The notes below the pieces were generated by a model. It was not told the origin of the DNA. It saw nothing but the letters and a program-made list of their open reading frames with translations, and did not search any database. Made by a program: the position numbers and the translations under genes. Of a stretch of 64,000 nt of DNA, positions 1 through 20,375 are shown piece after piece. This DNA is from a virus, in the IMG/VR virus record IMGVR_UViG_3300029391_000001, positions 19,880-83,879 of that record. One strand, written 5' to 3'. Each line of letters begins with the position of its first letter. Within the stretch, counting starts at the first letter, position 1.

Positions 1-1069
1 CATCATTCTTTATAAATGTAAGTGTAGGAGTTAATAAAGCAGTTCCCACTTCTACTATTTGAGAAGTAAAACTATAATAAAGCTATGGGTATACTAAATC
101 TCTAACTACTGTTGGAAACAGTAAAGTATCAATAATTTCATTAAAGGGCTTGCCCTTAAGTTTCTCTACTGTAGTCCCTTCAATTACTGTTGAAGTAGTA
201 TCATCTGGGAGTTCCGTCTAATAAGTAGCTATAGTTTCTAAGTTAGTTTGTATATTAGTAATACTTTCAGTATTAGTTTCTACTTTAGTATTTGTCTCTT
301 GTTGTGCTTCCTAAGTTTTCTATACTTCTTTCTTTGTTTCTTCTAGAGCAGGTTCAAGATTCTTAACATAGATACCTGGAAGGATAATAGAAGAGGTTTC
401 CTCTCCAATCTCCTATTCTATTAAATGAATAGCATTATCTTCCTAAGTAGATAAAATCACCTCTAAAGAATTATCTTCCTTTAGTTCTATAGTTTTGGAA
501 TTTTGGAGACTATTCTTAATCCAATTAAGAATGTTTTTATCAACATCTATATTCTCAATAGCATTATTCAACTCAACTATAGCTTCATTGATTTTTACTA
601 TTTCTTCAGATAGATTATTAATCCCTTTTCTATTAGTATCAATTTCTCGTTGTAAATCCTCCTTCAATACAGATATAGAAGTTCTAATATTGCTTATATC
701 GACTTTCAGTTCTTCTATTGCTTCTGTATTAGATTCATATTCACTAATAAAGTATAGGGCATAGTCTAGGGCATCCTTCACAGTATTAATACCTTCTGCA
801 ACGTCACTAGTATAGGTCCATTTTTGTTCTATATACTATACTAGGTCTTTTTGCAGTTCTATGGTTCCACTAATGTTTCCCCACAATAGACTCTACTCAT
901 CAGCAATACCTAAGTTCTTTCTTACTTTAGCTTTTTCTAGTTCTGTCCTATATTCTCCTAAATAGTTATTTCTTAAGAGAGGTATAGGCTCACATTTTAT
1001 AGGCTTACCCTTTTTACCACAAGGCACTATATCTGCGTTACTTACCGAAGTGTAAATAGACTGTATCAT
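1..1069 (-). CDS. coiled-coil virion/tail-fibre-like protein (3' part runs off window start); TAG read as sense
   Basis: ATG at 1067-1069 (minus), same frame as ORF fragment 443..781; heptad-rich sequence; multiple in-frame TAG. Confidence 0.45.
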
Positions 1070-1224
1070 TCTAGTTTAATAATTGCTATTTAATAAATTC
1101 GTGATTATCTAGTCTTACAGGTAGGTTAATAAAACAAATTAGATTAAGAATATCTTGATAATCTGGTTTATATCCCTTTTTGAGTTTTCTTAGAAAATCC
1201 TCATACCTTTTAATAGCCTTTCTC

Positions 1225-1956
1225 TTAAGAGCATCCACAACCTATACGTTTATGTCCATGGTGGTGATTATCACAGAATCCTCCACAGGTACGGAACATC
1301 GCTAGTAATCTCTCAGCCTCCATGAATTGTTTAAAGCATATTAAATAATCTATAATGTTAAGAGTCATCCATATGAAATCTCGAGCAAATATATCTGCTT
1401 CCTAATCTCTAGTTAGACACTTATTTAGTAAAGCATCAAAGAGTTTCTTACAATAATTAATGTAACACTACTACAAGTTTCCTGTAAAGAAAACATCTAC
1501 CTTACATTTTTTTATAGTAGTTCCTTCTATGTTTCGTTCAAGAACTTCTTTAACTGTACACTCTTCTAGCTTACCTTCTACTTCTTTATATAATTTTTCT
1601 CCATCAGTAACATAGATAGTCTCATAGTATTCCTTGTATTCGTCCGATGAATTTTCATACCATTTCATATTAGGAATAATGATATGGTCTACTACGTAAT
1701 AACCATCATCCTTGACCTTAAACATACACGAGTCTAAGTCTTCTGTATGGTCATTAAGTAGGACATCTATCAGAGTAGCATCACTTATACTAACTTTGAT
1801 GATAGTATTCAAGGTAGCACTCTCACTATACTTATAGGAGTCGTAAGAAGTTACTACCTCTACATCTTCATCAATATACTAGCCATATTCTTTTGAGAAA
1901 TCTTCTATCAGTATTTCCCCATTAATTTGGGTATGTATATCAATACTAAATTCCAT
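1225..1956 (-). CDS. hypothetical virion protein with C-terminal Cys/His cluster (CGGFCDNHHHGH...); TAG read as sense
   Basis: ATG 1954-1956, TAA 1225-1227, 732 nt in frame; contains ORF fragment 1471..1812; ~4 in-frame TAG. Confidence 0.45.
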
Positions 1957-1966
1957 ATTGTAATAA

Positions 1967-2698
1967 TTAAGACTCAATAGGCCACTAGCCATATTGAGCA
2001 GGGGTAGAAAAAGGTTTCCATTTACCTGCTTGTCTTATTCGTCTAGACATGAAGACGGAAGTAAATGATAAACTAATATCTTGAGGATAATCTGTCCAGG
2101 TATAAGACTATCCATCTGGAGTAGGAGGTAATTTATCAATCCCAGAGGAGGGCTGTCCATTCCAGTAGTAGTTATAGTCATAGGCTTTAATAGAGGTTAC
2201 TTCTGTGGTTTCTCTCCCGTCAGAATCTATATAGAGAGGATCTCCTTTTTTATTCGTTTTTTGTTTATACTCTATAACTGGTGTTATTCCCTCGGTTCTA
2301 GTATATATAGTCTATATAATAGTAGAGACATCACTCGCTACTATTTCATAGATAGTAGTTCCCTATGATTCATCAGCTCCCTAAAAAGTAAATTTAGTTC
2401 TTTTCCATATATATGGATTCTCTTCTGTTGGAAGCTCAAAAGTATCAGACCACTACTTACTTGATAGTTTTATTTCAGATTCATCGGCAGTATTAGCAGG
2501 GAGATAATGTATTTTAATAATAATACTATTAACTGCTTCACTTGAACCGGATAAATCTGATACCTACTTAAATAATTTTTTTAAGTCGTCTTCTACATTT
2601 GATTTAGAACCGGAAGCATTACTTATAATTACTGTCCCATCAGAGATAGGATAAATCTACTACTAATCTTTGTTGTATACAATTGTTCCAGTTGCCAT
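1967..2698 (-). CDS. hypothetical virion protein; contains three consecutive TAG codons
   Basis: ATG 2696-2698 right after portal stop; TAA 1967-1969; 732 nt in frame; plus-strand ctactacta at 2657-2665 = TAG TAG TAG in frame. Confidence 0.4.
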
Positions 2699-2699
2699 A

Positions 2700-4871
2700 T
2701 TAATGTATTTGTCTTATTTTGTCATTATATGGATTTCCATCATGAAGCTAAGCCAACTCTATTTCAGTTCTTTTTTCTTCAATATCCATTTGTCTATCTT
2801 TATAAGTAGAATCAGACTGAGCTTTAAGCCAGTTAACTTTATATTCTAACTGCATCTTCTACTATTCTAATCCCAGTCTCTATTCATCTAAGCTTTCAAT
2901 CTTTTGCTGAGCTTTCTATAATTCTTGCTGTAACTACTAAGCCTATTGAGAGGTTTCTTCTAATTTTTCTTGTAGTTGCTGAAGCTGATTATTTTCCTCT
3001 TTGCGAACTTGAACAGCTTTCTTAACCTTATATTTAAGGTCTGTCAGACTCTTAGATGTAAGAGCCTCAAAAATAATATCTGGATCCATCTGTTGATTTT
3101 TTACGAACTCTGGAATGATTGCTTTTATAGTCTATAAATCTTCCATCACTTCTGAACTAGCAGTAATATGAATATCGTAGTCAGTAACAGTAAAATACTC
3201 AGGAAGTGCGGTGAATATCTGTTGATATTTATCCCCAAGTATAATAGTTCCAGTTAATCCTTTCTTATAAGTAACTTTAGCCTAATTAAGACTATCTAGT
3301 AGTATCTCGCAGGTTATTAAATCCATCTGCTAAAAATAGTGCTTAGTTACTATATACGAGTTAGCTACTCCCTACTTAATATTAGTAACTGCATCTCTAG
3401 TTTCTATACCGTTAAGTCGTTCCCTAAATACTCCAGTTATTGATGATGTAGTTTGTTCTACTGATTGAATAGCTAGTTCAATAGCCTATACAGCCTATGC
3501 TTTTAAGGTATCATCAAATCCGTTATATATCTAGTTTGGAGCTTGCTGTCCGTCATTCCTACCTTCTTGGCTTGAGTCTATCCACATGATACCACCTTTT
3601 TTATAAGCTAACCATTTTTGTACTCGTTCTGGCCATTTAACTCCTAAGTTGGTAGGCAACAGAGACATATCCATAATAACTCCAGCAGTACCACTATTAG
3701 CTATTAGATTATCTCTATAATAGTTTAATAAGTCGTATCTATCCTACAGATGTGCACATTTTAATATAAGAGAATAAGGCTACTAAGAGCGATTTAAGAA
3801 ATATACTCCATTTACCGATAAAGAACAGAAGTTGGGATTATCTTTAGACCTCATAACAGTCTTGTCTAATCCTCTAAGAATATATATCTCTTCTCCTATT
3901 CTGATAGTATTGTATCTCTACATCACAAAATCATCATCTGTTTCAATCCATTCAACATCATAGACTGGGATTAACTAGAACCTATGAGCACTATATTCAT
4001 TGTCTGGATAGCCGGGAATGGTTTCATGATTCTAATCTTCATTTACTACTGTACAAGTATCTCCATATACTCTTCTATAAACAGCAGCTGAATCATCAGC
4101 TCGCCATTCATCTTTTAGTCTTCTTAAATCTTCTCTAGATATTTCTTTGCCATATTTAGCTAAAATCTAACTCTTACTCATCCACTTTCTTACTACAACT
4201 CTATATGAGTTCCTTACATATGGAGATTCTGGATTTCTATCAACAAATGTATTAAGTGGGTTTAATACCTCTATTTCAATATTAGTTCCAGAAGCCGATG
4301 ATTTCACTCTAAAGAATGTATAACCAGTAATTAATAAGTCTGTTAGTAACTAACGTAACTTAGTAATTAAATCGGTTTCTCTGGATTGCATAATATAATG
4401 TACTATATTCTAAGCTGCAATTTCATATTGAGAAATAAAGGATTGGTCAATATCCTATATAATTTTATCTAACTAAGTCTTTACAGCTTTATCAGTAATA
4501 TCCTTGCCATCAATAAACTTAAGAATTGAATTACTTAAATGGTCTTTCAAAAACTTTACTATTCCCTTGGTTATTTCTAGCTATTTTTCTCTTGTTATAT
4601 TACTGATAGTATCTGAATCTTTGCAAGAAATTTTCGGAAGTATAGGAGTTCCTAAATATTCTCCAACTAGAGCATCTACGTGTTTCTTTAATAAAGGCGT
4701 AAACTCTACCGAAGTGGGGCTACCTATTCCGAAGTTTTCTTCCAGATAACGGAACTATTCAGGATCTCTTTTACCATTATAATAATTATAAGCTTTCTGT
4801 AACTCATACTTATCATATACAAGTTCCGCAATAGCCTCGTTTGTCTTGTCTATTAATTCCTTCTCTTTCAT
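2700..4871 (-). CDS. portal protein (SPP1 gp6-like); about 30 in-frame TAG codons
   Basis: N-terminus MKEKELIDKTNEAIAELVYDKYELQKAYNYYNGK resembles, from memory, a YY.G motif near the SPP1 gp6-like portal N-terminus; lies just downstream of terminase; 2172 nt in one frame ending TAA 2700-2702; spot-checked mid-gene. Confidence 0.6.
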
Positions 4872-5091
4872 AACATAAATTATGTTGTTCTGGAGGAAGT
4901 TTAGTAGCGTTATAATACTTAACTCTTTGCAACTTCCTACTTCTTAATTCTTCCTTAATAAATGGCAGAAATTCTTCGTCTGGTAAATCTGCTATTATTA
5001 CTAATGGCATTTCTGACCTATCAAAGTTAAAAGAGACTTTATACCCAACTGGGTCTAAACTCTCAATATCTAGTCCGCCTATATACTCCAT
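4813..5091 (-). CDS. small hypothetical protein overlapping the terminase 3' end and the portal 5' end
   Basis: ORF fragment 4813..5274 frame; TGA 4813-4815; internal Met at 5089-5091 is my guess for the real start. Confidence 0.3.
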   Translation of the reverse strand: MEYIGGLDIESLDPVGYKVSFNFDRSEMPLVIIADLPDEEFLPFIKEELRSRKLQRVKYYNATKLPPEQHNLCYEREGINRQDKRGYCGTCI

Positions 5092-7426
5092 TTTGTACAA
5101 GTCCCTCATATATTCTAGGATCACTTGTTTCAACTCTGTATGGGTCATCATATTCGTTTCTTTGCATATTAAGTTCAGGAGTTTTCTTAGTTGGAATAAC
5201 TCCAAATCTTTTAATTCCTCTCTCGTCGTAATAGTAACCAAAATCTTGGAACTATTCAACTTCTTTCTCCACAAGTACGGGCTGTCTTCCTGATAGCTCT
5301 TGGTCTGCTAACTCAGTCATACCTACAGCGGCTACAATATCATACTTACCCTTATTTTCATCATTATATGCAGTGAACTATTCTAGCATTTCTTCGAACC
5401 ATATAGTATGGCAATAGTCTTCTATAAAGGCGGCTGTTAAATCAGTATGCTATTCGATTATAGTTTTTGTAGCAGGAGTTCCATACTATTTAGTAGTTCC
5501 ATTTCTGACATTAGTTAGAGTAGCTCTTGGGCGCTTCATAAAATAGTTAAGGCATCCTTTTTCTCTAGCCCAAGTAACCATACCCATACGAGTAGCTTCT
5601 ATATTTATTTTACAATTATAATAGCGAGCTAAACACATAGCTATTTTATAGGCTTCTCTGATGTCTCCAGGTCTATCCTTGTACATAGCAACATACTGAG
5701 GGTCATTCATACCAAACGCACGTTTCTTAATCGTTATGCAGAAATCAGACGGGTCTCTGGTTTCCTTAGAAGTCTAATTCGCTCCAATATCAATACCGTC
5801 TATACCTGCTACGTATAAGTCTCGCATCTCTTTATAAACTGGAACTTCAAAATCCTAGCCATTATCTTCTGCCTCCTATCTAAGCTTTTCCATTTGTTCT
5901 TTATATAAGTCAGACCATATTGGATGCTCTAGAATTTTTACTTTGCCATTGCTGTTAGGAATCCATTTAAAACCATCAATATTATCCTAAGTATGTTTAT
6001 TATTTTTGTAAAAATAATCAATATAACCACATTCGGGTCTTGGGCCAATTTGTTTAAGTCTTATATTAGCTATCTATTCGGCAACTAAAATTTTATTAAA
6101 CTTATTAACACCTTCTAGATTAAATGCTTCTTCTGCATTCCAACAACGTTCAGCGCATTTCTTTAGGTAGTCTTCTGGTACAGCTAACAGATTATCTCGC
6201 TCCTCCTATAAGAATTTCTTATATTCCACAGTATTACATACTCCTCTGTGGTCCATAAATTCTGGATTCAAAGATTGTATAAAGTATGGAATAAAGAATC
6301 CACTCTCTATAGTAGTCCCATCCTAAGTCCAATTATGTCTAAATGGAAGAATCTTATATGCTCTTGGATTATAGTAAATCTTTTTTAAGCCCTCTAGAGG
6401 AGCACCCATATCACCGCCAGTACCTCCAAACAACATTGTTCCACGAGGCATACCTTGAACTTCACAAAGTTCTTGACCTTGTACCACAGCGGTATCAAGT
6501 CCAGGCCAGGAACCAGCTTCATCATATATTAATAAATCTACACGGTCTCCACGAATATTAGATGGTTTAGCTCCGTTAATTGCTACAACCTCAGATTTAA
6601 ATCCTACGTCTTCAAACTAACCATTTATTTTGATTTGTTTACCTGATTTCTTTCTCAAATCCTGGTCAATAAGTCGCAATTTAAAAAATCCTCCTCCAGT
6701 ACAGGTATTTAAGAATGTAAGAGCATTATCAAACTTACTAAAGGTACCCTTAAGGAAGGTATCATTAAAGCAAGTAATCATAACCCTACTTCTTCTAATA
6801 ACAGAGTACATACGAGCAGAAAGAGAGGCGTTTATTTCAGAGAATCCAATAGAACGAGCTTTCATTAAAGCTGCGTGCTTGTGTAGCACTCTAGCCATCT
6901 ATAGATAATGAAAGAACATATAATGTGATGCAAAGAATATTGGGAAGTCATTATCAGTACCCTCACCAGAGGCTTTCTGCTAGTCAATAGTAGGTAACTA
7001 ATAGAAATTTAAGAAGAAGTAATTATCTCCAGTAATGGTGTATCCATTAACTGTCATTCCATACTTACATCTTCTATATTGCTCTTTCCAAAATTCGTTG
7101 TACCGCTTACTATCTCTAAGGTAGGGACAGTATTGACCAGTTCGTTTATATACTTCCCTAGTCTCGGTAAACCAATCTGGATTAAAGTCCAATCCATGAG
7201 TTTCGTCAATAGGTCTGTATCCAGTTATTTCATAAGATAAGGTAGGGTCAAATACTTCTATTTTATCTCCTATTTTAACATCCCAATAGTCAGAATTTCT
7301 GACCCTTTCCTCTCTTATTTTCTATACTAATTCTCTAGCTTCTTTAGCATCCTCTTTCTATTCTTTTTCTCTTACCTAATCTACAATATTCTATATTTCT
7401 TCAGGTAATATCTTTTTTCTTGGCAT
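5063..7426 (-). CDS. terL: terminase large subunit; about 20 in-frame TAG codons
   Basis: Hand translation gives LLIYDEAG (Walker B-like), a GIDGIDIG nuclease-like motif, and continuous sequence across every TAG; ATG 7424-7426; TGA 5063-5065; 2364 nt in one frame. Confidence 0.75.
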
Positions 7427-7428
7427 AA

Positions 7429-7989
7429 TTAAAAGTCTCCTGGGTCAAAACCATCCACAGCTCCAGCTCTAACAGTAGATTGTTCAGTAAGTTCTTTCTT
7501 AACCTAGTCTTCTAGTGTTATGAGTTCTTCATGAACTTTGTGAAGGGTAGCCATTTCCTTCATTACTTTTTCAGCCTGGAATACTGGTTTGCCGTTATTA
7601 TCACGCTCATTTAAATCTACAATAGTTTCGAAATAATCAATAAACTAGTCTGCAGCTCTTTTAGCTGCTTCTAGTAATTTTATTGACTTGTTTGAATCTT
7701 GTAACGCTCTGTATTTCCTACAAGCTTCTCTAAATATAGGGTCATTAAATTCCGACTCTGTCAATCCAGAATCGCTAATAGCTTCGTCATGTCGTTCATG
7801 TTCCGAATACTAACTGTATGGACTTTTCCAGTCTATAGCTAAATAAATGTAAGATAGTTCTCTAGTAGCTCTATCCTTTTCTGCAGATTTATCCCTCTAG
7901 ATTAAAGCCTTAAATTCCTTAACTAGCAATATCTCTGGTTCATTTATTTCTAGCTATTTAGTTAAAGTGTTATAGTTAAATACATTCAT
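7429..7989 (-). CDS. putative terminase small subunit, by position only; 5 in-frame TAG
   Basis: Ends TAA 7429-7431, 2 nt before the terL ATG; 561 nt in frame; no recognisable motif. Confidence 0.4.
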
Positions 7990-8026
7990 AATCATTAATC
8001 ATTATCATACACATTAGATAATCTTA

Positions 8027-8605
8027 TTATTTCTTTTTCATTTTGGAACCGCACTTATTGACTTTCATTTTTGAGCCACAAGCGTCTTTCTTAGCATATT
8101 GTTTTCTGTCAGGAACCCATTTTCCTCCCTGGAAATTACCCTTATGTCCTTTATTGGCCATGATTTCCTAATCATTGTATTTATTGATTGATATAGAATC
8201 TCTTGAGGCTTCGTCTCTAGCAGATTTCATATCTTTCTTATACTAAGCTCTTCCAGCCTTAAATTTATCAACTTCATTAGCTTTCTTAGTAACTTTAGTT
8301 CCTTTTTGTGCTTTCTGGCAAGCTTTACAGATTCTACCGCCTTGCTTAAAATATACAAGCTCTTCTCCTTCTGGACATACTCCTTTTAGCTTCTTATAAT
8401 ACTCAAGCTTAGCTCCAAGCCTAGCCATTACTCCTCCTTGCATTTTCCGCATAAATTCCTGATACTTAGCTTTAATGCCGTCTTCACCTAATTGTTCAGC
8501 ATAAGCTTGTAAATCCTATTCAGATTGTACTTGTATTCCCTACGCAGCGGCATCTTGTATTAGATATGCCATAAATGCTTTTTGTAATTCTTTCTAGTTA
8601 GCCAT
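8027..8605 (-). CDS. lysine-rich hypothetical protein; 4 in-frame TAG
   Basis: ATG 8603-8605, TAA 8027-8029, 579 nt in frame; contains ORF fragment 8243..8452. Confidence 0.45.
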
Positions 8606-8760
8606 TACTCTTCTACTTTAATTAAATCCTTAGTATTAAACACTGCTTCCTACATAAGTCCGGAATCAGTAAACCATCTACATCTTAATCCTCGTAATCC
8701 TTGGTTATCTTTAAATAAAGCTGCTTCTCTTCTTAGAACAAGCATAACTGGAGAATGCAT
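8605..8760 (-). CDS. small hypothetical protein
   Basis: ATG 8758-8760; TAA overlaps the next ATG (TAATG); one in-frame TAG. Confidence 0.25.
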
Positions 8761-8815
8761 TACTTTACACTACCGTAAAGTAACACAATCCCCAGGCTTA
8801 AAATAAACTTTTTCA

Positions 8816-9418
8816 TCAATTGTTTCCATACTTCAATTCGTTTCTTCTTTCAGTTAGCTTTTCGTTAACTACAGCCATAATTCTGTTCTCATTAACTACA
8901 ACAAATCCAAACTTGTAGAACGGAACCATGCACTCGCTAGCTATTGTATAGAATACTATATCTCCAGGTTTTAGGAACTCACACTTGTACCCAACCTCAA
9001 TAACAGTACCCACTTTAATAAATTGTTGTTCTTCTTCTATTTCTCCTGTTTCATTAGATTTATATGTTGGAGCAAATCCACCTAAGTCTGTAATTAATCC
9101 ACTCTTAGTAGTTTTAATTTTTTGAAACGGATTTTGTTCGAAAGGTTTAATTAATGCATACCCATACATGGGCATAATTTCTACACCATTCATATCCTCA
9201 GATAATGATTTGGCGTAAGATTCTAAAGCTGCATTATGTTTAGAGAATTTATCTTCTAGTTCATCTACTGCTGTATTGAATCTTTCCTGTTTTTCTCTTA
9301 ATAAAGTTTTATCTGCAGCTTCTCCATTTACTATAAGGTGCTGTCCTGTACCTTCCATACCAGTTATAGCTAGTGCTAGTTTCTCATTACTGTTCAATTC
9401 TGTTCTTAAAGTTTCCAT
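8816..9418 (-). CDS. hypothetical protein; C-terminal half GroES/Gp31-like (KPGDIVFY)
   Basis: Intact ORF ATG..TGA; GroES-like motif pattern in C-terminal half. Confidence 0.4.
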   Translation of the reverse strand: METLRTELNSNEKLALAITGMEGTGQHLIVNGEAADKTLLREKQERFNTAVDELEDKFSKHNAALESYAKSLSEDMNGVEIMPMYGYALIKPFEQNPFQKIKTTKSGLITDLGGFAPTYKSNETGEIEEEQQFIKVGTVIEVGYKCEFLKPGDIVFYTIASECMVPFYKFGFVVVNENRIMAVVNEKLTERRNELKYGNN

Positions 9419-9426
9419 AATTCATT

Positions 9427-9765
9427 TTACCATTTACATAAATCACAATGTTCATCTTCTATTCTAGTTTTGTTCTCTAGTATACAACCACACTCCTCAC
9501 ATACTTCTCCAAATGAAGTCTGTAATTTATGAGGACAAGTATTACAAATATTTAATCTTGTGGTTGCTAAATCTTGATTAATTCCAAATATATGGAAATA
9601 TATACTCTTCAATATTACTAAAGGTTTAGTAAATATTGCTTTAATCCATTTCTTTGACATCTTTTCAGTAGGTTCTTGAGTCATAAGTATATAAGCCTTA
9701 GTAGGGTTAGCCATTACTGGAGTCCCATATAGTAATAAATTATTTACCATTTCTTCGCAGGACAA
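9427..9765 (-). CDS. Cys-rich zinc-ribbon protein
   Basis: CxxC...CxxC pairs. Confidence 0.45.
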   Translation of the reverse strand: MSCEEMVNNLLLYGTPVMANPTKAYILMTQEPTEKMSKKWIKAIFTKPLVILKSIYFHIFGINQDLATTRLNICNTCPHKLQTSFGEVCEECGCILENKTRIEDEHCDLCKW

Positions 9766-9959
9766 TGCTTCTTCTCATTAGGTATCTTTAATTCCAGTAG
9801 ACATCCGCATCCTTTTATATATCCTTCTTTTGGACCAATACTTATGTCATTGTTTTCTGGATTTAAATACAACTGTCCATTACATATTGCATCTTCTTGA
9901 TTACATATTGGACAGCGTCTACATATTTTCCATCTTTCTTCTATTTCCTCTAGTGTCAT
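9744..9959 (-). CDS. Cys-rich zinc-ribbon protein
   Basis: CRRCPIC...CxxC motifs. Confidence 0.4.
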   Translation of the reverse strand: MTLEEIEERWKICRRCPICNQEDAICNGQLYLNPENNDISIGPKEGYIKGCGCLLELKIPNEKKHCPAKKW

Positions 9960-9961
9960 AA

Positions 9962-10876
9962 TTAATATTCAATACGTTGACGTTTCTTTTTATTTTCTGC
10001 CAATATAGATTCTTTCTTGTAAAAAGAAAGCATTCTTATTACTTCATCTTTTAAATATGGTAAGTGATATACTGTCATGTTGTCACTGTGGTCGAAGTGT
10101 ACTAAAACTAAGTCTTCAATTTCAAATTCTGGGTTTTTCTTCTGAATCATCCAGGCGTAAGTACTTAGCTGAAGGGTATAATGCCAATAATTAACATCAT
10201 CTAAATTATTTAGAGGATACTTCATCTTAACTGATGTCTTAGTTTTAGAATTAAAGAAACTCTTTGTTTCTATTTTTTTATTAGTCTTCCAGTCGCCAAT
10301 AATTATCTTATTACCTCTTTTAACTAATAAGTCAATTTGTCCAGCTATTCTTAGTTTTCCGTCCTCAGATACTCTAGAGATTAGATACTCAGGATATACC
10401 CCATTCTCCAAATCTAGATTGTTATAGTCTTTTATACACTCAAACTTACCACCTATTTGATATTTACTTAGATCTATATCCTTCTTCTTTTTGTAAAAAG
10501 AGTTTTCCAAATCTGCATGGATTCTAGTTCCTCTCTCGCAAGAGTTTCTGTTCTCCATATCCCATGCATCTAAGATAGCTTGTTGTTCTTTATTAAACTC
10601 GTCTTCTGTAATGTTATGAAGTTCAAGTAGAACTTTGTCAAATTTCTTAGTATTCAGCAGAGATTTTTTCTCGATAGCCCAATCTTCTTTAGGTAGAAGT
10701 TTCTCTAGTGCTTTATAAGCTGACCAGAACTCTTTATCAAAGGGTTGGGTGAAAGAATGAATTAAAGTCGTTACAGATATAAATTTCTGTTCTGGCTTTG
10801 TAACATCATAATAAATATGAGCTTCCTCTTCGAAAGCTATGTTCCCATTTTGTTTTGTAATTTTACTTTTGTCCAT
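9962..10876 (-). CDS. PD-(D/E)XK family nuclease
   Basis: GQIDLLVKRGNKIIIGDWKT (D..E.K motif). Confidence 0.55.
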   Translation of the reverse strand: MDKSKITKQNGNIAFEEEAHIYYDVTKPEQKFISVTTLIHSFTQPFDKEFWSAYKALEKLLPKEDWAIEKKSLLNTKKFDKVLLELHNITEDEFNKEQQAILDAWDMENRNSCERGTRIHADLENSFYKKKKDIDLSKYQIGGKFECIKDYNNLDLENGVYPEYLISRVSEDGKLRIAGQIDLLVKRGNKIIIGDWKTNKKIETKSFFNSKTKTSVKMKYPLNNLDDVNYWHYTLQLSTYAWMIQKKNPEFEIEDLVLVHFDHSDNMTVYHLPYLKDEVIRMLSFYKKESILAENKKKRQRIEY

Positions 10877-10990
10877 TAGTCATAATTCATTTAATCATTT
10901 ATCACATTTATCTATATTTATTTGATACTTTTCAAGTATATTAATATTCTTTGTAAGATACAAATCAATAAATAATACATTATATTAAAA

Positions 10991-11333
10991 ATGTCTAATA
11001 TGACAAAAATGGTAACATTTGAATGTCCAATTTTTAAAAACGGGTCAGGCATTCATATTAAAGAGAAAAACAAAGGTAAATTTACTGCCTCTGCTAAGGC
11101 TGCAGGATAGTCTGTACAGGAACATGCTAAATCTGTACTAAACAATCCTAATGCTACTCCTCTTCAGAAGAAGCGTGCTAACTTTGCTAGAAACGTGGCT
11201 AAATGGAAACACGAAGATGGAGCTAAGATACATAAACCAAGTGGACATAGATCTATTCTAGATAATGGATGGATTCCTACTACTAGATTAAAGAAAGGAA
11301 ATTATGGATTAATTAAAACAAGAAAGCAATGAG
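10991..11333 (+). CDS. hypothetical protein; one in-frame TAG
   Basis: ATG..TGA in one frame verified codon by codon; TAG at 11108-11110. Confidence 0.45.
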
Positions 11334-11407
11334 CGCTGTAGTTAAATTAATTAAAGAATTTATACTTAAGATATATCTTTATTTACTATTTATATTTAAT
11401 AAGTAAT

Positions 11408-11599
11408 ATGGACTATAATAGAGCAACTCTTTATGCGGCTACTGGTCGTACTTTATTACTCCCTGGCTGGAAAGGGTATTTTTATTGGGACTATACTAAG
11501 AATGAATTAAATTTTAGAAATGGAGACTATCATTTAGATAACAAATAGCTCAAGGAGAAAGGAGTTATGGAACGTAATGATTGGTATTATATAATATGA
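11408..11599 (+). CDS. small hypothetical protein; one in-frame TAG
   Basis: Frame-consistent ATG..TGA. Confidence 0.3.
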
Positions 11600-11988
11600 T
11601 AATTAAAAATAATATTATACCGTTTGGAGGTTATAAAGTAATTAATCTGTTTGGATTAATATTTACTAAGTCGGATTTGACTGATGAGGATAAGAATCAC
11701 GAGAATATCCATTCAGTATAGATTTTAGAATGTGCAATAGCGTTTGCAATACTTATATCTATATTATTTGGATTAGAATGGGTATGGTTAGCTATTCCAT
11801 CTTTCTATATCTGGTATGGATTAGAGTATTTAATTATACGACTATTAAGACTTAAAGATTCTCAAAATGATTGCTACAGAGATGTAAGCTTTGAAGAAGA
11901 AGCTTATATGAATGAAGACAATTTACAGTATCTAGAAGGATAGAGAAAGATGTTTTCATGGATAAAATATCTAAAAGTTAATGCATAA
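11596..11988 (+). CDS. membrane protein with HEXXH motif, putative zincin-like metallopeptidase; two in-frame TAG
   Basis: HENIH motif plus hydrophobic helices; ATGA overlap with the upstream gene. Confidence 0.4.
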
Positions 11989-12032
11989 CAAAATAGGCGA
12001 ACTTAGACAATTAAGTCTAGGCTCGCCTATTT

Positions 12033-12245
12033 TTATTTACTATTATACGTACAAGTGATTCTGTTTGGCTCTTCCCACCAAGGTTTATCTGAAAGTGGAG
12101 TTCTGATGCTATTGGGCCAATTTATAATTGGAGTAGTTTCCTCTACTATAGCCTCCATTATTTTAAATAATGTATCCAAGTCTAGCTCTGGAAGCAGCTC
12201 ATGAATATTAGTTATTGTTTTCTTATAATTTATCATACCCTTCAA
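12033..12245 (-). CDS. hypothetical protein
   Basis: ORF track. Confidence 0.35.
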   Translation of the reverse strand: MKGMINYKKTITNIHELLPELDLDTLFKIMEAIVEETTPIINWPNSIRTPLSDKPWWEEPNRITCTYNSK

Positions 12246-12591
12246 AAGTGTCGTTAATAATTGCTTTCTCTATTGTAGTATCTTTATATAAACCATGTTG
12301 TAGTATATTTCTTACTTGATGGTCTACTTGATTCCATATATCTAATAATATAGAAGAATCATCTGAAAGACTATATTGTGGATAGCTAGCCCTTAAACTG
12401 CTAAGTACTTTGCCATTAATGTAAATGTCAAATACGAAATTTTTTATATCATCTGTAGTTTCTCCAGAAATTCCTGCAGCTCTTTGTAAAAGTTTAAGAG
12501 CCTTTTCATATACTTCCCTTTCTTCACGCTCAATTCTTGAAGAATTGAACATCATCATATTTGCGGCTACTGACATATTAGTACGATACAC
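12223..12591 (-). CDS. hypothetical protein
   Basis: ORF track. Confidence 0.4.
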   Translation of the reverse strand: MYRTNMSVAANMMMFNSSRIEREEREVYEKALKLLQRAAGISGETTDDIKNFVFDIYINGKVLSSLRASYPQYSLSDDSSILLDIWNQVDHQVRNILQHGLYKDTTIEKAIINDTFEGYDKL

Positions 12592-12740
12592 TTAGCTTAT
12601 TTAAGTTGTCTAGATAATCTAAGAACCATTGTTCGTTTTGTTTTCCTTCTTCTACAATAGTATTAATTAAAGATTCTGTAGCTAATAGTGTTATTTCTGC
12701 TAGCTCCTCTAATTCCGATTTAGTAAGTTCGTTATATTTT

Positions 12741-13055
12741 TCAATCAAGTTTAACATAATCCATCCAGTCTTTTATATATGATTTACATTCTTCCAAATC
12801 TGGATAGATACTTGTTATAGAGCATCCAGTTTTCGGATTTTTAAAGTGGTGCATCTTAGCCTCTTCTTTTTTCTCCTCTTCTGTATTTCTATTTAATGTT
12901 CTATTCCAATAGTTGTACTTTTCATCTAACATTTCCATATTACATTCCTCTAATATTTTCATATTAGGGTTATTCATTATCTTGTCGTATTTTCTCTTTA
13001 AATTAGAGACTTTGACAACATCATTTCCATTTAATACAACTGCACACTGTTTCAT
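12741..13055 (-). CDS. hypothetical protein
   Basis: ORF track. Confidence 0.4.
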   Translation of the reverse strand: MKQCAVVLNGNDVVKVSNLKRKYDKIMNNPNMKILEECNMEMLDEKYNYWNRTLNRNTEEEKKEEAKMHHFKNPKTGCSITSIYPDLEECKSYIKDWMDYVKLD

Positions 13056-13279
13056 TTCAATACCTTATAAGTACATATCTTGCCTATCTGTTTTCCTTGA
13101 ATTGTTATTTGCGGAAGAAAATAGCAGGCTTGATTCTCAAATTCTTGAGGTACAAAGATATAATCAAACTTACTTCCAACTACCTTCTCACAAACTTTAT
13201 TCCAATCGTCTCCCTCTTCTATAATAAGAGTTTTAGCTCCTGTTGGAGTTACTACATAATTCTCATTTAATTTTATCAT
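13052..13279 (-). CDS. hypothetical protein (ORF trimmed to internal Met)
   Basis: The 5' extension in the ORF track is translation of the suppressor tRNA T-arm. Confidence 0.35.
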   Translation of the reverse strand: MIKLNENYVVTPTGAKTLIIEEGDDWNKVCEKVVGSKFDYIFVPQEFENQACYFLPQITIQGKQIGKICTYKVLK

Positions 13280-13296
13280 AACTATTAATTTTGGCG

Positions 13297-13368
13297 TTGC
13301 CCTACTAGGATTCGAACCCAGACTAAATGATTTAGAGTCATCTGTGCTGACCATTACACCATAGGGCA
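13297..13368 (-). tRNA. suppressor tRNA, anticodon CUA (reads TAG); Gln-type body
   Basis: Full cloverleaf: acceptor tgcccta/tagggca (U1:A72), D-arm gtgt/gcac, anticodon stem gatga/tcatt, loop cuCUAaa, T-arm ctggg-ttcgaat-cctag. Nearly identical in architecture to tRNA-Gln(TTG) at 27771. Confidence 0.8.
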
Positions 13369-13506
13369 GTAACTTATTTCTCTTTTAGAGATTTATTTTC
13401 TGCTGCCAATTTCTCTAGTTCTTTTCTTAATTGTTCATTTTCGTGAAATAAAGCCTGCATAGTAGCGTTGATATTAGCTAATAGTATTCTCATTTGAGCA
13501 ACCTAT

Positions 13507-13908
13507 TCATACATAAGCTTTCAGTTGTTCAATTCTCTTTTTAGCTATATCTGACAATGCCATTTTAAATTTAGCAATACCAGCTCTTACTGTTTCTAAC
13601 TTGCCGCTTTCTAAGCATTCTTGTATTTTATGAACTTCAAGCTCTCCTAGATATTCGCATACATCTATAAATAAATCATCATCTAGAGATTCTAAATATT
13701 TCTGGAATTGGTCTACCTCTTTATTAGCTAGACAGCTTTCTTCCTTCTATCTTTCATAAGATATTAATAAGAACAAAGAATCGTCGGTAGATTCGGACTT
13801 AATAGTTAGCCCATTACCAGACATATAATATTCTTGATTCGTATTAATTGCCTCAACTAGCTATTTAAACTAGTCCTAATTTAACAATGTTTCTAAGTCT
13901 GTAATCAT
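13507..13908 (-). CDS. hypothetical protein; 4 in-frame TAG
   Basis: Hand-translated ATG 13906-13908 to TGA 13507-13509; 402 nt in frame. Confidence 0.4.
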
Positions 13909-14070
13909 AATTGTTTTCTTTTTAGTTATATACAACAATAACCTCCGAAAAGTTAAACGCAAAGTTAAAAAATTCTAATTCAAATATTATACATATTTTA
14001 TATATTAAGGGGAAAGTCGGTACAGGTACTTTATATAAATAGCCCCCTGGGGTTATTATAAATTCCGACT

Positions 14071-14649
14071 TTAAAAATTGGTGATGTTATTATATAGGTC
14101 AGAAATTAGCTTTTTAAATTCTTCTGTAGACATATCATTTTTCATGGCATTTACTCTATTGGTTGTAATTACAACATTTCCTTCTATATATCCTAAATTA
14201 CTATCTATTCTATCTAAGGAATAGTCTTCGTAATTTTCTGGCACCAATCCAGTGTAATAGTCTTTATACTCTTGTTTTAATAGTAGTTCTTTTATATATT
14301 CTAACGTTAGATTGTATTCTAATACTTTACTTCTTCTTCTCTTACACTGGGAAGACTTCTTTAATAGAAATTGAGCTATCATATTATCTTGAGTTTTTTC
14401 ATTAGATTCTAATTTCTTAATATTCTTATTTGTTTTGTATCCAAATTCTGTCTTGATTGCATTTTCTGGTTTTAGTCCTTTCACTATATTAAATTCGCCA
14501 ATTATATTAAATAAACTATCCTCTTCTAATGTCTCTAAGATTCCATTTACTGAACGTAAAAAATTCCATCCATTTTCGTTCCCATTTACTCTCCTAGCCA
14601 TTTCTTTCTTAGAAAGGTCTTCTGTTATATTTTGTTCTACACATCTCAA
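14071..14649 (-). CDS. HNH-like endonuclease (weak)
   Basis: SLDRID...GY.EGN...N..K pattern. Confidence 0.35.
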   Translation of the reverse strand: MRCVEQNITEDLSKKEMARRVNGNENGWNFLRSVNGILETLEEDSLFNIIGEFNIVKGLKPENAIKTEFGYKTNKNIKKLESNEKTQDNMIAQFLLKKSSQCKRRRSKVLEYNLTLEYIKELLLKQEYKDYYTGLVPENYEDYSLDRIDSNLGYIEGNVVITTNRVNAMKNDMSTEEFKKLISDLYNNITNF

Positions 14650-14912
14650 TAAGAAATCTTTCTGAGAATTAGAAAGTCTAATATAAATTCTGGACAGTCT
14701 ATATGTTTTAATATTTTATATCTATTATAAAATCCGTTTATTGTGTGGTTTTCTATATATTTCAGTTCTACTAAATCTTTTAACATCTGCGGAATGTTTT
14801 TAGTAGCAAATCCAAATTTATGATTTAATTCTGACCCACTAAAATGAGAAAATTCTCCGTTTTCTTCATAGGCGTTTATTACCGCCAGTAGTACATTTAA
14901 ATTTCTTTTCAT
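14646..14912 (-). CDS. hypothetical protein
   Basis: ORF track. Confidence 0.35.
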   Translation of the reverse strand: MKRNLNVLLAVINAYEENGEFSHFSGSELNHKFGFATKNIPQMLKDLVELKYIENHTINGFYNRYKILKHIDCPEFILDFLILRKISY

Positions 14913-15168
14913 ATTTATTCAGTTTAATGTTATTACTTATCTATACAAGAATATCGGAGGGTCAAAGTTAAAATTATCAAAAATACTAACTCCAGCATAA
15001 TGTCAGTATTTTACATTAAGACGAAAATGAGGATAGGTATTACTTATGAAAAACTTACATAGTGGCTGTAGCGCGTGCCCACAACCCCTTTAGTCCCCCC
15101 CTGTATATTGATATAAAACTAAAACAAAAACAACTCACAGTATTAACAAATTAAAAATTTTTAGTATT

Positions 15169-15615
15169 ATGACACTCGAAGAATTGAAAGACCAGAACGT
15201 AAGCGCAGTAGAAAGAGCTAAGGCAGTAGTATCAGCATTGGGACTGAAAGGTGATGAACGCTCAGTTGTTGTCGGCTTGTCAAAGGGCGATAAGTTTAAG
15301 TTGGTAGCAATGAACAAGGTAGATTTGCCTGCAAATGCCAACCAACCAAACCAAAGCAACTTTACACCAATCACATTTAGCACTGACACAGGTGCAACCA
15401 TTGGTGCAAAACACTTTGCGGGCGTAGAAATCGACGACGATGCTCCGGCAATCGGTTCAACTCCGTTGGAAAATGCCGCTTTCCTTGTTTATTGCATTGA
15501 CCACAATGTAACATTTAAGGTAGACAAAAAGGTAACGGAAGACATTGAAGCTACCACTGACCGCCAAGCCTACAAGAAAAATACTTACAAGCTGGTAGTG
15601 GAAGACTATGATTAA
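15169..15615 (+). CDS. hypothetical protein; first plus-strand gene after a divergent intergenic region
   Basis: ORF track; 256-nt AT-rich gap upstream. Confidence 0.5.
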   Translation: MTLEELKDQNVSAVERAKAVVSALGLKGDERSVVVGLSKGDKFKLVAMNKVDLPANANQPNQSNFTPITFSTDTGATIGAKHFAGVEIDDDAPAIGSTPLENAAFLVYCIDHNVTFKVDKKVTEDIEATTDRQAYKKNTYKLVVEDYD

Positions 15616-16628
15616 AAGATTGGGGAGAAATCCCCTTTCTTTTACATACAAATAATCTTTGTAGAAATGGACATAAGAAAAAAGTTTAAGACTATAAAGT
15701 GTTTGTATAATTGGGGCATAATCTATGACCCAAAGACTAATGAAAAGTTAAATTTCAAATCCAAACGTGTTTATTGCGTAACTTCTTGGGCTTGGATTAT
15801 GACCTATCAAAAGTCAGAAGAAGATATTCCTGAGATAATTAGGATAGTCTTTGTAGATTAACTCTAAGGTACTATGAGTTTTAAATAAAGTGCCCACATG
15901 AACCCCATCATCGGAACGTTGGTTAACGGGGAAAACAACATTACAACAAATCAAATCAAAGTTTTTGTTTAGTTTTAGGATTATATCTGGCAGCTTGGAA
16001 AGACAAGCAAAATCTTTATACCTATCTGCTAATAGGTTTAGTGTTCAACGCGAACATTCGGTAAAAGAAGGAAATTGTACACTCAAAAAGACCCTCAATT
16101 TCCGGACTTTTTCCGATTTTCAAAAAATCCGCCAGAGTAGGAGTTATATAGCTCACACTCTCTATGGACATTATTTAGTATTTAGCCTATAAAAAGGCAA
16201 CAAAAAGCGAGGCTACGCAGAAGAGCCTAACACCAAAAATAACTGCTACAAATTCTATGTGCATATTCGCAAACTTGAGCACTATAGGATTTAGGTTGAG
16301 CTGTAAGGATTGGTCACTTATAGCAATATTATGAGTACTGCTGATATGTCAGTGACCGTACATATCACATATAAAATATGTTATACAATTATGTTAGAAG
16401 TTGCCAGGTCTAAGAAGCCTGATTAAAATCTCTAGATAGTAAGAGAGAACCTCATAAGGGTTCATTTTCCATCTCGAACCTATTCGCAAGTTTATAGACT
16501 AGCTATCTATAAATTTAGTGATGGAATACCAACGAAGTTGGTGTTCCCGCTTTGCGAACGTTGATAACGTCCTCAGCATGGAAAACTGAGAAATAATCTC
16601 CTATCTTATTCTAGATATAGATAGGATT

Positions 16629-16685
16629 TCCCTACTGGTGCGTCTCCCGCTGGAGAAGATTCTGGTTCAAGTCCAGAGTAGGGAA
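16629..16685 (+). ncRNA. tRNA-like minihelix (acceptor stem, tetraloop hairpin, T-arm; no D or anticodon arm)
   Basis: tccctac/gtaggga 7-bp acceptor; T-arm tctgg-ttcaagt-ccaga; internal hairpin tctcc-cgct-ggaga. Confidence 0.4.
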
Positions 16686-16827
16686 CTACTAAGTTGCAAT
16701 ATTCATATTATTGTCGGACCATAATGGGTATGCCCTGAGACTATGCAGTTGTTGTGAAATAACTCAAAGTATTGTGGCACAGGAAGGTCTAGTCGTCACT
16801 TTGCTCATTTTATTAATTTTCATTTTG

Positions 16828-16852
16828 ACTAAAAGGCACAGCGGTGCCTTTA
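16828..16852. terminator. hairpin aaaggcac-agcg-gtgccttt, possible bidirectional terminator
   Basis: Perfect 8-bp stem with a T/A run. Confidence 0.35.
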
Positions 16853-17271
16853 CTCTCAAGATAAGAACAACCTTTACGTGGTTTGAGAGATAAGTAAGCT
16901 ACTTCAGCTGAAACTAATAGTTCTAGTAACAATTAAAAATATTTACCATGAAAGAGAAAATGAAACGTATTGAGGAGTACACTAAAGCAATGAGAGAGCT
17001 ACTAGATAAACTCTTGGAGCAAAACCCAGATCTATGATGAAATATGGGGAGCTTATGTTGCAGGCATGAAGGTGTTCTTATAACTCCTATTCTAGCTGAG
17101 AATTAAAACTAGCTGGCTTTTATTACTCTTTGTAAAAGCTCAAAAATTAAAAAGAGAAATCTAGAACGGTAAGCCCGGTTCTCTTCATCCTTTAACTGAT
17201 TTAGAAGTAAAACAGAAATTAGTTGGCAGCCTGGAATAGACAGGCATTTTTAACTAAAAATTATAGAAAAA

Positions 17272-17736
17272 ATGAACACAGTAGAAATTAACAGCTTAAA
17301 GAAGTATTCAGAGTTTACAACAACATTTCGTATTCCATTCAAAAAGGCAAATGATGTAGAAGCTAAATGCTATACGCCTATGGATGTAATTGACGCTTGG
17401 AAAGAAGTATGCATACAGGCGTTAGAAATGAGAATGGAGGCGTGTCTGTTAATGTTGCTCAAGAACAGAGATCGAGTGATAGAATCTGACGAAGAATGTG
17501 TTGTTTTCAGAAAACCCAACGGACATCTTCATTTCTTCAACCACTCCAGCTTTCAGGCTATGGAAGCTCTAGTAGTAGCTCTTGTAGTAGAGGGTCCTAT
17601 AGTACTCGACTCCCTCCTAGTAGACCTATTATTGAAGGCTTTGTACTGGATTCCAGAAAAGTTGAAAAAAGATCATCAAGAATTTGGATTTGGAGAATTA
17701 ATAAGCTGTTTGACCTGCCTAGCCTACAAAGCTTAG
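17272..17736 (+). CDS. hypothetical protein
   Basis: ORF track. Confidence 0.45.
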   Translation: MNTVEINSLKKYSEFTTTFRIPFKKANDVEAKCYTPMDVIDAWKEVCIQALEMRMEACLLMLLKNRDRVIESDEECVVFRKPNGHLHFFNHSSFQAMEALVVALVVEGPIVLDSLLVDLLLKALYWIPEKLKKDHQEFGFGELISCLTCLAYKA

Positions 17737-20313: not shown

Positions 20314-20375
20314 CAATTCTTAACTAAGAGAAATCTAGATTATACTATATAATAGTAGGCAAACTCTTAGTTATC

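Follow-up and report, generated by a model that had tools for sequence, protein, structure and literature searches.

Evidence for TAG-to-glutamine recoding of the late genes and a phage-encoded suppressor tRNA in a large crAss-like phage

The stretch of DNA analyzed here, in the following called the window, comprises 64,000 nt of the virus record IMGVR_UViG_3300029391_000001 (positions 19,880 to 83,879). Its left end is occupied by nine consecutive genes on the minus strand (1..8829), which contain 81 in-frame TAG triplets and not a single in-frame TAA or TGA. The evidence supports assigning this region to the late genes, for DNA packaging and the virion, of a crAss-like phage with a large genome of ~180–190 kb. 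A previous sequence-only reading had located a module with TAG as a sense codon at 1..8605. We recovered the block but not these limits: as a new detail, it starts at 8829 and not at 8605, and TAG-containing genes exist outside of it as well.

Read in the direction of transcription, the contiguous block begins with a gene for a 74-amino-acid protein (8605..8829; 2 TAG), which has a 74-amino-acid ortholog in the related genome L004 and weakly matches phrog_3261 (3.9e-4). The following gene (8027..8605; 5 TAG), an ORF with TAG as sense, encodes a Lys/Cys-rich product of 192 amino acids, the length of which ranges from 192 to 575 amino acids among the relatives. The next gene (7429..7995; 188 amino acids, 5 TAG) matches phrog_16390 of unknown function (1.1e-10) and, lying immediately upstream of terL, is a purely positional candidate for the small terminase. 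Both genes follow the pattern that had been noted for further virion genes. The gene for the terminase large subunit, TerL (5063..7426), has 787 codons with 19 TAG, close to the ~20 claimed earlier, and ends with TGA. Its product carries the Walker B-like motif DLLIYDEAG, including the previously noted LLIYDEAG, and matches phrog_6681 over residues 91–712 (6.2e-63); its homologs show 72–100% identity.

Between terL and the portal gene, and overlapping both, lies a small conserved gene (4813..5109) of ~98 codons, the start of which may be located further upstream. It lacks TAG here and has 1–3 TAG in the relatives, is conserved in the same relative frame in the related genomes L001 and L003 and appears among the gene calls of L001 and L004; a family match for its product was not found. 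The portal protein gene (2700..4871) has 723 codons with 28 TAG (about 30 had been claimed), a TAA stop codon and the N-terminus MKEKELIDKTNEAIAELVYDKYELQKAYNYYNGK given in the sequence-only reading. The protein matches the portal families phrog_6547 (1.6e-48) and phrog_156 (4.6e-13) as well as Pfam P22_portal (2.9e-6, 26.5 bits at a cut-off of 26.1), the latter over residues 154–658. The YY.G motif near the N-terminus, a putative portal signature outside the stretch matched by Pfam, is kept in the relatives, and the orthologs contain 33–39 TAG each. The profile searches with the recoded TerL and portal proteins, proposed as a check beforehand, thus yielded the expected families. The block continues with two genes for proteins of 243 amino acids each. 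In one of them (1967..2698), the 10 TAG make up 67% of the Gln-type codons; the other (1225..1956; 4 TAG) has a 243-amino-acid ortholog in L004, and its product had no match in Pfam or PHROG. Of the last gene (1..1069), only the 3′ part of 356 codons with 8 TAG is visible before it runs off the window edge. It weakly matches the tail protein family phrog_788 (3.8e-5) and has an ortholog of 524 amino acids in L004.

In a minus-strand unit that precedes the recoded block by ~4.5 kb, we detected with ARAGORN an amber suppressor tRNA with the anticodon CUA (13296..13368; Rfam tRNA model, 66.3 bits). The sequence-only reading had not mentioned this tRNA. Its body resembles tRNA-Gln, including the U1-A72 pair, and among 22 tRNAs the closest is the phage tRNA-Gln(UUG) on the plus strand (27771..27843; ARAGORN and sequence comparison) with 71% identity. 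The suppressor is syntenic in L001, L003 and L004, where compensatory changes occur in the acceptor stem. Directly upstream lies a conserved gene on the minus strand for a protein of 133 amino acids (13507..13908; 4 TAG). This protein is lineage-specific and its gene always precedes the suppressor tRNA; a confident structure model was obtained, which gave no fold match. We considered this gene as a TAG-based autoregulatory feedback element and rejected the idea, because the number of TAG (4, 4, 2 and 0 across the genomes) shows that the feature is not conserved. Among ~50 ORFs scanned, no release factor or aminoacyl-tRNA synthetase genes of the “code-change” type were found.

On the plus strand, a module of replication and auxiliary genes that includes a tRNA array extends over 19354..63703; codon counts and stop-codon usage show it to be readable almost entirely in either code. 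The Pfam domains comprise a SNF2-type helicase, DnaB, AAA_24, a Toprim primase, NAMPT, two SPFH proteins, OmpA and an AAA ATPase, with ResIII/Helicase_C, DnaB_C, AAA_24 and Toprim_2 located at 54.7–60.9 kb. In 19 large plus-strand genes we counted no TAG in 6531 codons, versus 79 in 2743 codons of the late genes. The early and replication genes end with TAA or TGA, plus one TAG terminator. This gene (35512..36186) ends 3 nt before a tRNA-Glu gene starting at 36190, and the equivalent position is occupied by TAA in 10 orthologs; its TAG therefore appears to be a true stop codon.

The early genes were readable in the standard code with three exceptions. One gene (36643..37095, plus strand) has a single sense TAG nine codons before its TAA stop codon. 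This TAG aligns with a Glu codon, the tail behind it is conserved in the orthologs, and the alignment to phrog_5706 passes through it (3e-45, compared to 1.3e-44 when truncated). The other two, both on the plus strand inside the tRNA array, encode a PD-(D/E)XK endonuclease (20547..20999; 3 in-frame TAG) and a GIY-YIG homing endonuclease (32273..32908; 6 in-frame TAG). The former matches Pfam PDDEXK_5 (8.1e-21; residues 11–133, crossing the TAG positions) and phrog_5018 (6.7e-17), the latter Pfam GIY-YIG (6.2e-13) and phrog_314 (4e-31). The GIY-YIG gene is variably present, with a match in 10 of 44 orthologous loci and at varying positions. It is a new detail that both mobile endonuclease genes in the tRNA array are TAG-recoded. 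Further sense TAG were found on the plus strand in a protease-like gene with an HExxH motif (11581..11988; 2 in-frame TAG; phrog_15610 protease, 9.7e-32) and its neighbor (10991..11332; 1 TAG), an ORF with TAG as sense.

The features examined in the window agree with an origin from Crassvirales. TerL and portal are homologous to those of crAss-like families (phrog_6681, phrog_6547) and adjacent, in the order terL then portal, and the replication block combines a DnaG-family primase, DnaB and SNF2 helicases and an AAA+ ATPase. In tblastn searches with TerL, the matches were mostly to crAss-like, Bacteroides, Flavobacterium and Azobacteroides phages, with MT835470 as the best GenBank phage match (43% identity); a megablast search of GenBank found no near-identical phage record. 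Within crAss-like phages, membership in the Zeta group is most likely. This group was described with genomes of 145–192 kb, late-gene TAG-to-Gln recoding and suppressor tRNAs (Yutin et al. 2021, PMC7886860). As in that group, TerL and portal can be read only if TAG is taken as a sense codon, the recoding falls mainly on late genes, many tRNAs are encoded, a suppressor among them (21 tRNAs by ARAGORN and 24 by Rfam in the window), and the replication block encodes a DnaG-type primase, DnaB and SNF2 helicases and an AAA ATPase. The contigs bearing the TerL homologs of 72–100% identity are 176–195 kb long, which fits this placement; the genome size given above is accordingly an indirect one, taken from relatives. 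The late block is cut by the left edge, so that the signature structural genes (among them those for the major capsid protein and IHF, and gene 75) and the giant RNA polymerase block with its DxDxD motif fall outside the window. Unlike in many intron-rich Zeta genomes, the Rfam scan of the window detected no group I introns, and even at E-values up to 0.05 the low-coding stretches gave no intron or ribozyme matches. Mobile elements are represented by the free-standing GIY-YIG and PD-(D/E)XK endonucleases and, among the relatives, by an intein in one TerL homolog (P0003).

The assignment of TAG as a sense codon is supported by several lines of evidence. Within 1..8605, the frame that encodes the late proteins holds 79 TAG, no TAA and no TGA, while the other two frames are rich in all three triplets. 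With TAG as sense, 100% of this region is covered by ORFs of 100 codons or more, versus 19% in the standard code, and coverage never exceeded 42% in 200 dinucleotide shuffles. For the first 8 kb, the comparison of coding density suggested beforehand gave 12–17% in the standard code and 96–100% with TAG as sense (counting ORFs from 100 amino acids upwards); as controls, reading TGA as sense brought no gain and reading TAA as sense 33–39% coverage. The longest stop-free run increased from 164 to 793 codons, compared to a mean of 147 and a maximum of 269 codons in the 200 shuffles read with TAG as sense. This gain bears out the earlier view of a gene-dense region, but the accompanying statement that there is almost no ORF over 60 amino acids was exaggerated, as 12 standard-code ORFs of 60–153 amino acids lie within 1..8605. 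In the standard code the region looks fragmented, and this look is the only argument for regarding the block as a phage remnant that is decaying and no longer functions, or as an artifact of assembly, with the TAGs as nonsense mutations. Against it, the frames are interrupted by TAG alone, and the portal and TerL frames (723 and 787 codons) are unbroken, their profile matches being single end-to-end stretches that each cross many TAG positions. The same late genes occur at 70–100% identity, with different TAG positions, on dozens of independent 176–195 kb contigs. In orthologs of 70–79% identity the frame is kept and the TAG positions turn over with CAA/CAG, as the sequence-only reading had anticipated in claiming conservation across these positions. 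The frame-specific stop statistics together with the conservation across independent contigs refute a remnant, and we regard its probability as negligible. The data hence support translation of the late block by genetic code 15, with TAG as sense and UAA and UGA remaining stop codons.

Which amino acid is inserted was addressed at the codon level and with outgroups, since a Q in database relatives at TAG positions is a circular argument, these relatives being recoded themselves. In the orthologs of 70–79% identity, 94 of 227 codons facing TAG (41%) are CAA or CAG. The BLOSUM62 sum over 196 aligned residues was highest for Q (485), followed by E (277) and K (182), which are also the next commonest residues opposite TAG. 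These two residues, the slightly higher share of E (16%) than of Q (13%) in the TAG columns of distant standard-code outgroups and the label tRNA-Pyl printed by ARAGORN are what speaks for another amino acid, be it pyrrolysine, Glu, Lys or a classic amber-suppressor residue. The outgroups, at 25–43% identity, are by themselves too distant to separate Q from E or K, and genuine CAA/CAG columns give the same profile with an equal share of Q. The ARAGORN label follows from the anticodon only; the tRNA folds into a canonical cloverleaf and is nearest to tRNA-Gln, with U1-A72. Pyrrolysine decoding was rejected, given the score of 66 bits with the general tRNA model, the similarity to tRNA-Gln and the preference for Q over K (485 versus 182); a dedicated synthetase was not found among the ~50 scanned ORFs. 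Gln has moreover been detected in peptides of related phages (PMC9523058). A residue other than Gln is thus very improbable, and the evidence supports glutamine as the meaning of TAG in this genome. Codon usage is uninformative for the assignment: the share of CAA plus CAG is similar in late (2.8%) and early genes (3.0%), so that TAG adds to the Gln codons instead of replacing them. With TAG counted, Gln reaches 5.7% in late versus 3.0% in early proteins, which may reflect structural-protein composition.

Taken together, we consider it highly probable that the window carries a crAss-like late block in code 15, in which UAG is read as Gln by the phage's own suppressor, and early genes that avoid TAG. 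The suppressor (13296..13368, minus strand), a putative tRNA-Gln derivative with the anticodon CUA, would presumably receive its glutamine from the host glutaminyl-tRNA synthetase and compete with host release factor 1. The plus-strand genes for replication and auxiliary functions, which avoid TAG, would be translatable by the unmodified host machinery upon entry. Full-length portal, TerL, their neighbors and the two mobile endonucleases would then be made only after the suppressor has accumulated. The comparative data show that the late genes are recoded, that TAG is assigned to Gln, that a conserved suppressor tRNA exists and that TAG is divided unevenly between the gene sets; the temporal order is a suggestion. 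In its extended form, the two meanings of TAG would be separated in time, as terminator early (35512..36186) and as Gln later (virion genes, endonucleases). Suppressor accumulation would then act as a genome-wide late gate that also holds back the selfish nucleases until the end of replication, and the 133-amino-acid protein might be an unrecognized code-switch factor. We put this forward tentatively and with low confidence.

Alternatively, TAG might mean Gln constitutively without any regulatory role, the recoding being neutral or directed against the host (for instance by letting ribosomes read through host TAG stops, or by making the phage incompatible with its competitors or with host defenses), and the early genes might lack TAG only because they are translated before the phage tRNA exists. 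An anti-defense role was proposed by Yutin et al. (PMC7886860), and TAG and CAA/CAG swap freely between close relatives, like synonymous codons. The partition is not strict either, with sense TAGs in the plus-strand genes 36643..37095, 20547..20999 and 32273..32908. A further point against gating is that the gene directly ahead of the suppressor, having 4 TAG, needs suppression itself. An N-terminal bias of the first TAG, as in an efficient gate, was not reproducible (P = 0.10–0.20 in the window, 0.03 in L001, 0.99 in L003), and the +4 nucleotide showed no clear bias (T in 32% after TAG versus 21% after CAA/CAG; n = 85 each). Against constitutive decoding stands the contrast of 0/6531 versus 79/2743, which is the prediction of gating, although sequence alone fits both readings; we regard constitutive decoding as possible but rather doubtful. 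Scans around the block for sigma-70-like promoters (54 sites versus 75.6 in shuffles), terminator-like sites (12 versus 7.3, s.d. 2.7) and the Bacteroidetes-type TTTG..TAnnTTTG motif (3 versus 2.75 expected) gave no enrichment of promoters and near-chance numbers of the other two.

Late-gene TAG-to-Gln recoding is already known; it was described in 2021–2022 and confirmed by proteomics in related phages, with peptides carrying Gln at TAG from one Suoliviridae and one Zeta phage (PMC9523058, PMC10136315). As in the code-15 crAss-like phages of Peters et al. 2022 (PMC9523058; see also PMC10136315), code 11 breaks up the structural proteins and code 15 makes them whole, a tRNA(CUA) suppressor is encoded, and the early regions keep to the standard code; in contrast to the direct peptides obtained there, the evidence for the window is comparative. 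The gating model, with stop-codon recoding as a device for timing late genes and lysis, is that of Borges et al. (bioRxiv 10.1101/2021.08.26.457843). The window shares with their phages standard-code-compatible replication genes, structural genes recoded as a unit and a suppressor tRNA, and its recoded endonucleases embedded among early genes may be compared to the intron endonuclease in their TGA-recoded Agate phages. It differs from their set, in which the crAss-like phages have ~105 kb: within the window a lysis cassette is not visible, a code-change module of release factor and aminoacyl-tRNA synthetase was not found, and neither was a reproducible bias in TAG placement. Among RefSeq Suoliviridae (Delta group), cr52_1, cr114_1 and cr115_1 likewise have an annotated terL with 7–12 in-frame TAG; however, their TerL identity is 27–29% and their genomes have ~100 kb. 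In cr52_1, a tRNA(CUA) annotated as tRNA-Gln adjoins the TAG-containing terL at 15 nt upstream, whereas here the suppressor lies kilobases away from the recoded block.

For annotation, the window needs translation table 15 or a mixed-code gene caller, as standard-code calling misses or breaks up two endonucleases, several small genes and the packaging and virion region of ~9 kb. Biologically, it adds one more well-resolved case of late-gene TAG-to-Gln recoding in an abundant large-genome crAss-like lineage. The early-gene TAG terminator, the TAG-recoded mobile endonucleases in the tRNA array and the conserved unit of the 133-amino-acid gene followed by the suppressor tRNA are useful details of this case; the means and timing by which the code switch is imposed call for experiments rather than sequence analysis.

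Under the bacterial code, positions 1..8605 contain only short ORFs; those that reach 100 aa occupy 12–17% of the first 8 kb. Re-calling genes with TAG as sense, as suggested by the sequence-only reading, raised this coverage to 96–100%; with TAA as sense it was 33–39%, and TGA as sense gave no gain. With TAG read, the minus strand resolves into contiguous genes: the portal gene (2700..4871; 723 codons, 28 TAG, TAA stop), terL (5063..7426; 787 codons, 19 TAG, TGA stop) and late genes at 7429..7995 (5 TAG), 8027..8605 (5 TAG), 1967..2698 (10 TAG), 1225..1956 (4 TAG) and 1..1069 (8 TAG, continuing past the window edge). In their coding frames these seven genes hold 79 TAG and no TAA or TGA; in the two non-coding frames all three triplets are abundant. 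The longest run with TAG read as sense spans 793 codons; none of 200 dinucleotide-preserving shuffles read in the same way exceeded 269. A small conserved gene is present between terL and the portal gene.

For portal and terL the sequence-only reading had proposed the same coordinates, which the ORF calls with TAG as sense reproduced, and about 30 and 20 TAGs, close to those counted; the peptide motifs it quoted were found in the recoded translations. Its claim that 1..8605 has almost no ORF above 60 aa is overstated: only short ORFs occur, but twelve of them measure 60–153 aa. The region is recoded, as it stated, but the upstream limit is not 8605: the block starts one gene earlier, with 8605..8829 (minus strand; 74 aa, 2 TAG). 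The relative L004 has a called gene of 74 aa at the equivalent place. The Lys/Cys-rich gene at 8027..8605, second upstream of terL, ranges in length between 192 and 575 aa across close relatives (counterparts at 7171..8484 in L004, 7680..9407 in L001 and 8811..9407 in L003); L004, which has the same TerL as the window, encodes 437 aa.

Profile searches (PHROG, Pfam) with the TAG-translated proteins, a check likewise proposed from the sequence, identified 2700..4871 as portal (phrog_6547, 1.6e-48; phrog_156, 4.6e-13; Pfam P22_portal barely above its gathering score) and 5063..7426 as terminase large subunit (phrog_6681, 6.2e-63, residues 91–712). Each match forms one stretch spanning many TAGs. 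In tblastn searches of GenBank phages with TerL, nearly all matches were crAss-like: the best were two unannotated human-gut contigs (43–44% identity), followed by Suoliviridae and the Azobacteroides phage (25–29%). Megablast found no record close enough to match. Metagenome collections yielded many full-length TerL homologs (72–100% identity) on contigs of 176–195 kb, and IMG/VR holds dozens of contigs from the same lineage. An intein that includes homing-endonuclease domains (PF05204, PF05203, PF14528) is present in one TerL homolog of 1131 aa (P0003), unlike in the terL of the window.

When TAG positions were masked, database proteins showed Q there. This evidence was set aside as circular because the relatives are recoded too: in the standard code their genes do not give the database sequences, and they contain 18–39 TAG themselves. 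We therefore used four other tests, based on codons in relatives, the turnover of TAG, outgroups and the cognate tRNA. Across three genomes of 70–79% identity, 227 comparisons opposite a TAG gave CAA or CAG 94 times, with codons for K and E next in frequency. BLOSUM62 sums at TAG positions were highest for Q (485), ahead of E (277) and K (182). The 47 TAGs of the window's TerL and portal genes correspond in L003 to 15 TAG, 18 CAA/CAG and 14 other codons, and in L001 to 26, 9 and 12, respectively; TAG thus turns over with CAA/CAG in the manner of a synonymous Gln codon. In three standard-code TerL outgroups whose genes lack in-frame TAG (MT835470, cr10_1 and ProJPt-Bp1), 13% Q was found at TAG columns, the same as at genuine CAA/CAG columns, a sequence profile consistent with Gln but by itself insufficient to decide. 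The proposal that TAG is translated is borne out by the profile matches crossing TAGs and by these exchanges.

A tRNA with anticodon CUA is encoded at 13296..13368 on the minus strand; the Rfam tRNA model gives it 66 bits. Its acceptor stem has a U1-A72 pair, and the nearest tRNA is the tRNA-Gln(UUG) encoded by the phage itself, with 71% identity and an identical D-arm. L001, L003 and L004 retain this suppressor upstream of their late blocks; in L001 its acceptor stem shows compensatory changes. In the RefSeq phage cr52_1, likewise, 15 nt separate a tRNA(CUA), which is annotated as tRNA-Gln, from the downstream terL, a gene with 11 TAGs. The "Pyl" label given by ARAGORN reflects the anticodon alone and was rejected. 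L003 has two tRNA(CUA) genes (671..742, minus; 3096..3168, plus), the second divergent and on the opposite strand.

In the late block, TAG accounts for 2.9% of codons and, depending on the gene, for 28–67% of Gln-type codons. Nineteen large plus-strand genes, among them an SNF2-type helicase, DnaB, AAA_24, primase, NAMPT, two SPFH proteins, OmpA and an AAA ATPase, use TAA or TGA as their stop and are free of TAG over 6531 codons. The split is not absolute. TAGs also occur in 13507..13908 (minus; 4), directly upstream of the suppressor, in 10991..11332 (plus; 1), in a protease-like gene (11581..11988, plus; 2) and, within the plus-strand tRNA array, in a PD-(D/E)XK endonuclease (20547..20999, plus; 3) and a GIY-YIG homing endonuclease (32273..32908, plus; 6). 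Of 44 orthologous loci, only 10 gave a match to the GIY-YIG gene, and its position varied among them. The TAG ending 35512..36186 (plus) stands where ten orthologs have TAA, with a tRNA-Glu beginning 3 nt on, and appears to be a true terminator. In 36643..37095 (plus), which also seems to end at TAG, this codon is a sense codon nine codons before the end: it stands opposite a Glu codon, and conservation continues over the next eight residues. An endonuclease VII/HNH-like gene upstream of the suppressor unit (14071..14601, minus) has no TAG; it also matches, more weakly, PHROGs that bear the annotations Srd anti-sigma factor and sigma-70 decoy.

The published mechanism of suppressor-gated late genes (bioRxiv 10.1101/2021.08.26.457843; PMC7886860) is the best-supported reading for the window. 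UAG would be decoded by a tRNA-Gln-type amber suppressor from the phage, which the host GlnRS presumably charges and which competes with RF1; genes needed on entry would avoid TAG, and TAG-containing late genes would give full-length protein only once the suppressor accumulates. The first TAG lies at most 39 codons from the start in every late gene of the window, and without suppression these genes would yield only short peptides. For the temporal part we found no sequence evidence in TAG placement (an N-terminal bias of the first TAG was not reproducible), +4 nucleotide context (no clear bias), promoter and terminator scans (no signal above chance) or a scan of about 50 ORFs for release-factor and synthetase genes (none).

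The 11-mer TTTTAACTTTG is over-represented: with at most one mismatch it occurs 13 times, against 4.7 expected, and none of 100 shuffles reached 13. Occurrences include those at 13960..13970, 14963..14973 and 5022..5032 (minus) and 41534..41544 (plus). Three exact copies lie on the coding strand 50–80 nt upstream of gene or tRNA starts, and the one before 13507..13908 lies in a non-coding block conserved in relatives, with a CCCCAGGGGG hairpin ahead of the block. The 11-mer may belong to a phage promoter.

Cumulative GC skew over 1..64000 has its minimum near 14–16 kb, coinciding with the switch from minus- to plus-strand genes, and rises steadily thereafter. Within the divergent zone that separates the minus- and plus-strand modules, 16396..16602 (plus) matches the Rfam RAGATH-14 RNA over its full length, with 156.6 bits against a gathering score of 149.1 (E 8.5e-29). 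Coding density is low over the next 700 nt or so. No mention of this RNA was found in the literature searched. Coding density is low with all stop-codon sets tried at 16600..19300, 21150..22300, 27300..29000, 31100..32100 and 33000..34300, where Rfam matched only tRNAs; an ORF-like reading at 31090..31450 (6 TAG) does not look protein-like. Rfam gave three further tRNA-like elements not reported by ARAGORN (28743..28822, 33979..34051 and 34264..34319, plus), the first also matching the tmRNA model below threshold (23.8 bits versus 47). A second tRNA-Cys(GCA), directly upstream of the recoded GIY-YIG gene (32168..32253, plus), has 86 nt and a long extra arm unusual for tRNA-Cys; a normal one of 75 nt is encoded at 30447..30521; tRNA-Met (80 nt) and tRNA-Phe (78 nt) also seem long. 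An auxiliary cluster at 45342..51230 (plus) encodes an OmpA-like outer-membrane protein (beta-barrel and OmpA domains), an SPFH/Band 7 protein, NAMPT (NAD salvage; 3.4e-32) and a PRTase-CE-like protein. A second SPFH protein (657 aa) is encoded at 25255..27228, within the stretch where the GC content of the window is highest (0.43).

The window shows all the testable features that define code 15 and the genome organisation of crAss-like phages. Zeta crAss-like genomes measure 145–192 kb, carry many tRNAs including suppressors and have TAG or TGA reassigned, mostly in late genes (Yutin et al., PMC7886860); the replication block of the window is that described for this group. The window most likely belongs to it, judging from genome size, tRNA content and TerL divergence rather than from a tree that includes named references. 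For two crAss-like phages, Peters et al. (PMC9523058) showed peptides that carry Gln at TAG positions; one is a Suoliviridae phage and one a Zeta phage according to a later review (PMC10136315). The TAG recoding of these late genes is real, was rightly interpreted from the sequence and is already known. The details added here are the upstream boundary of the block at 8829, the recoding of mobile endonucleases, the early-gene TAG terminator and the small conserved gene between terL and portal; in practice, the window needs translation table 15 or a mixed-code gene caller.
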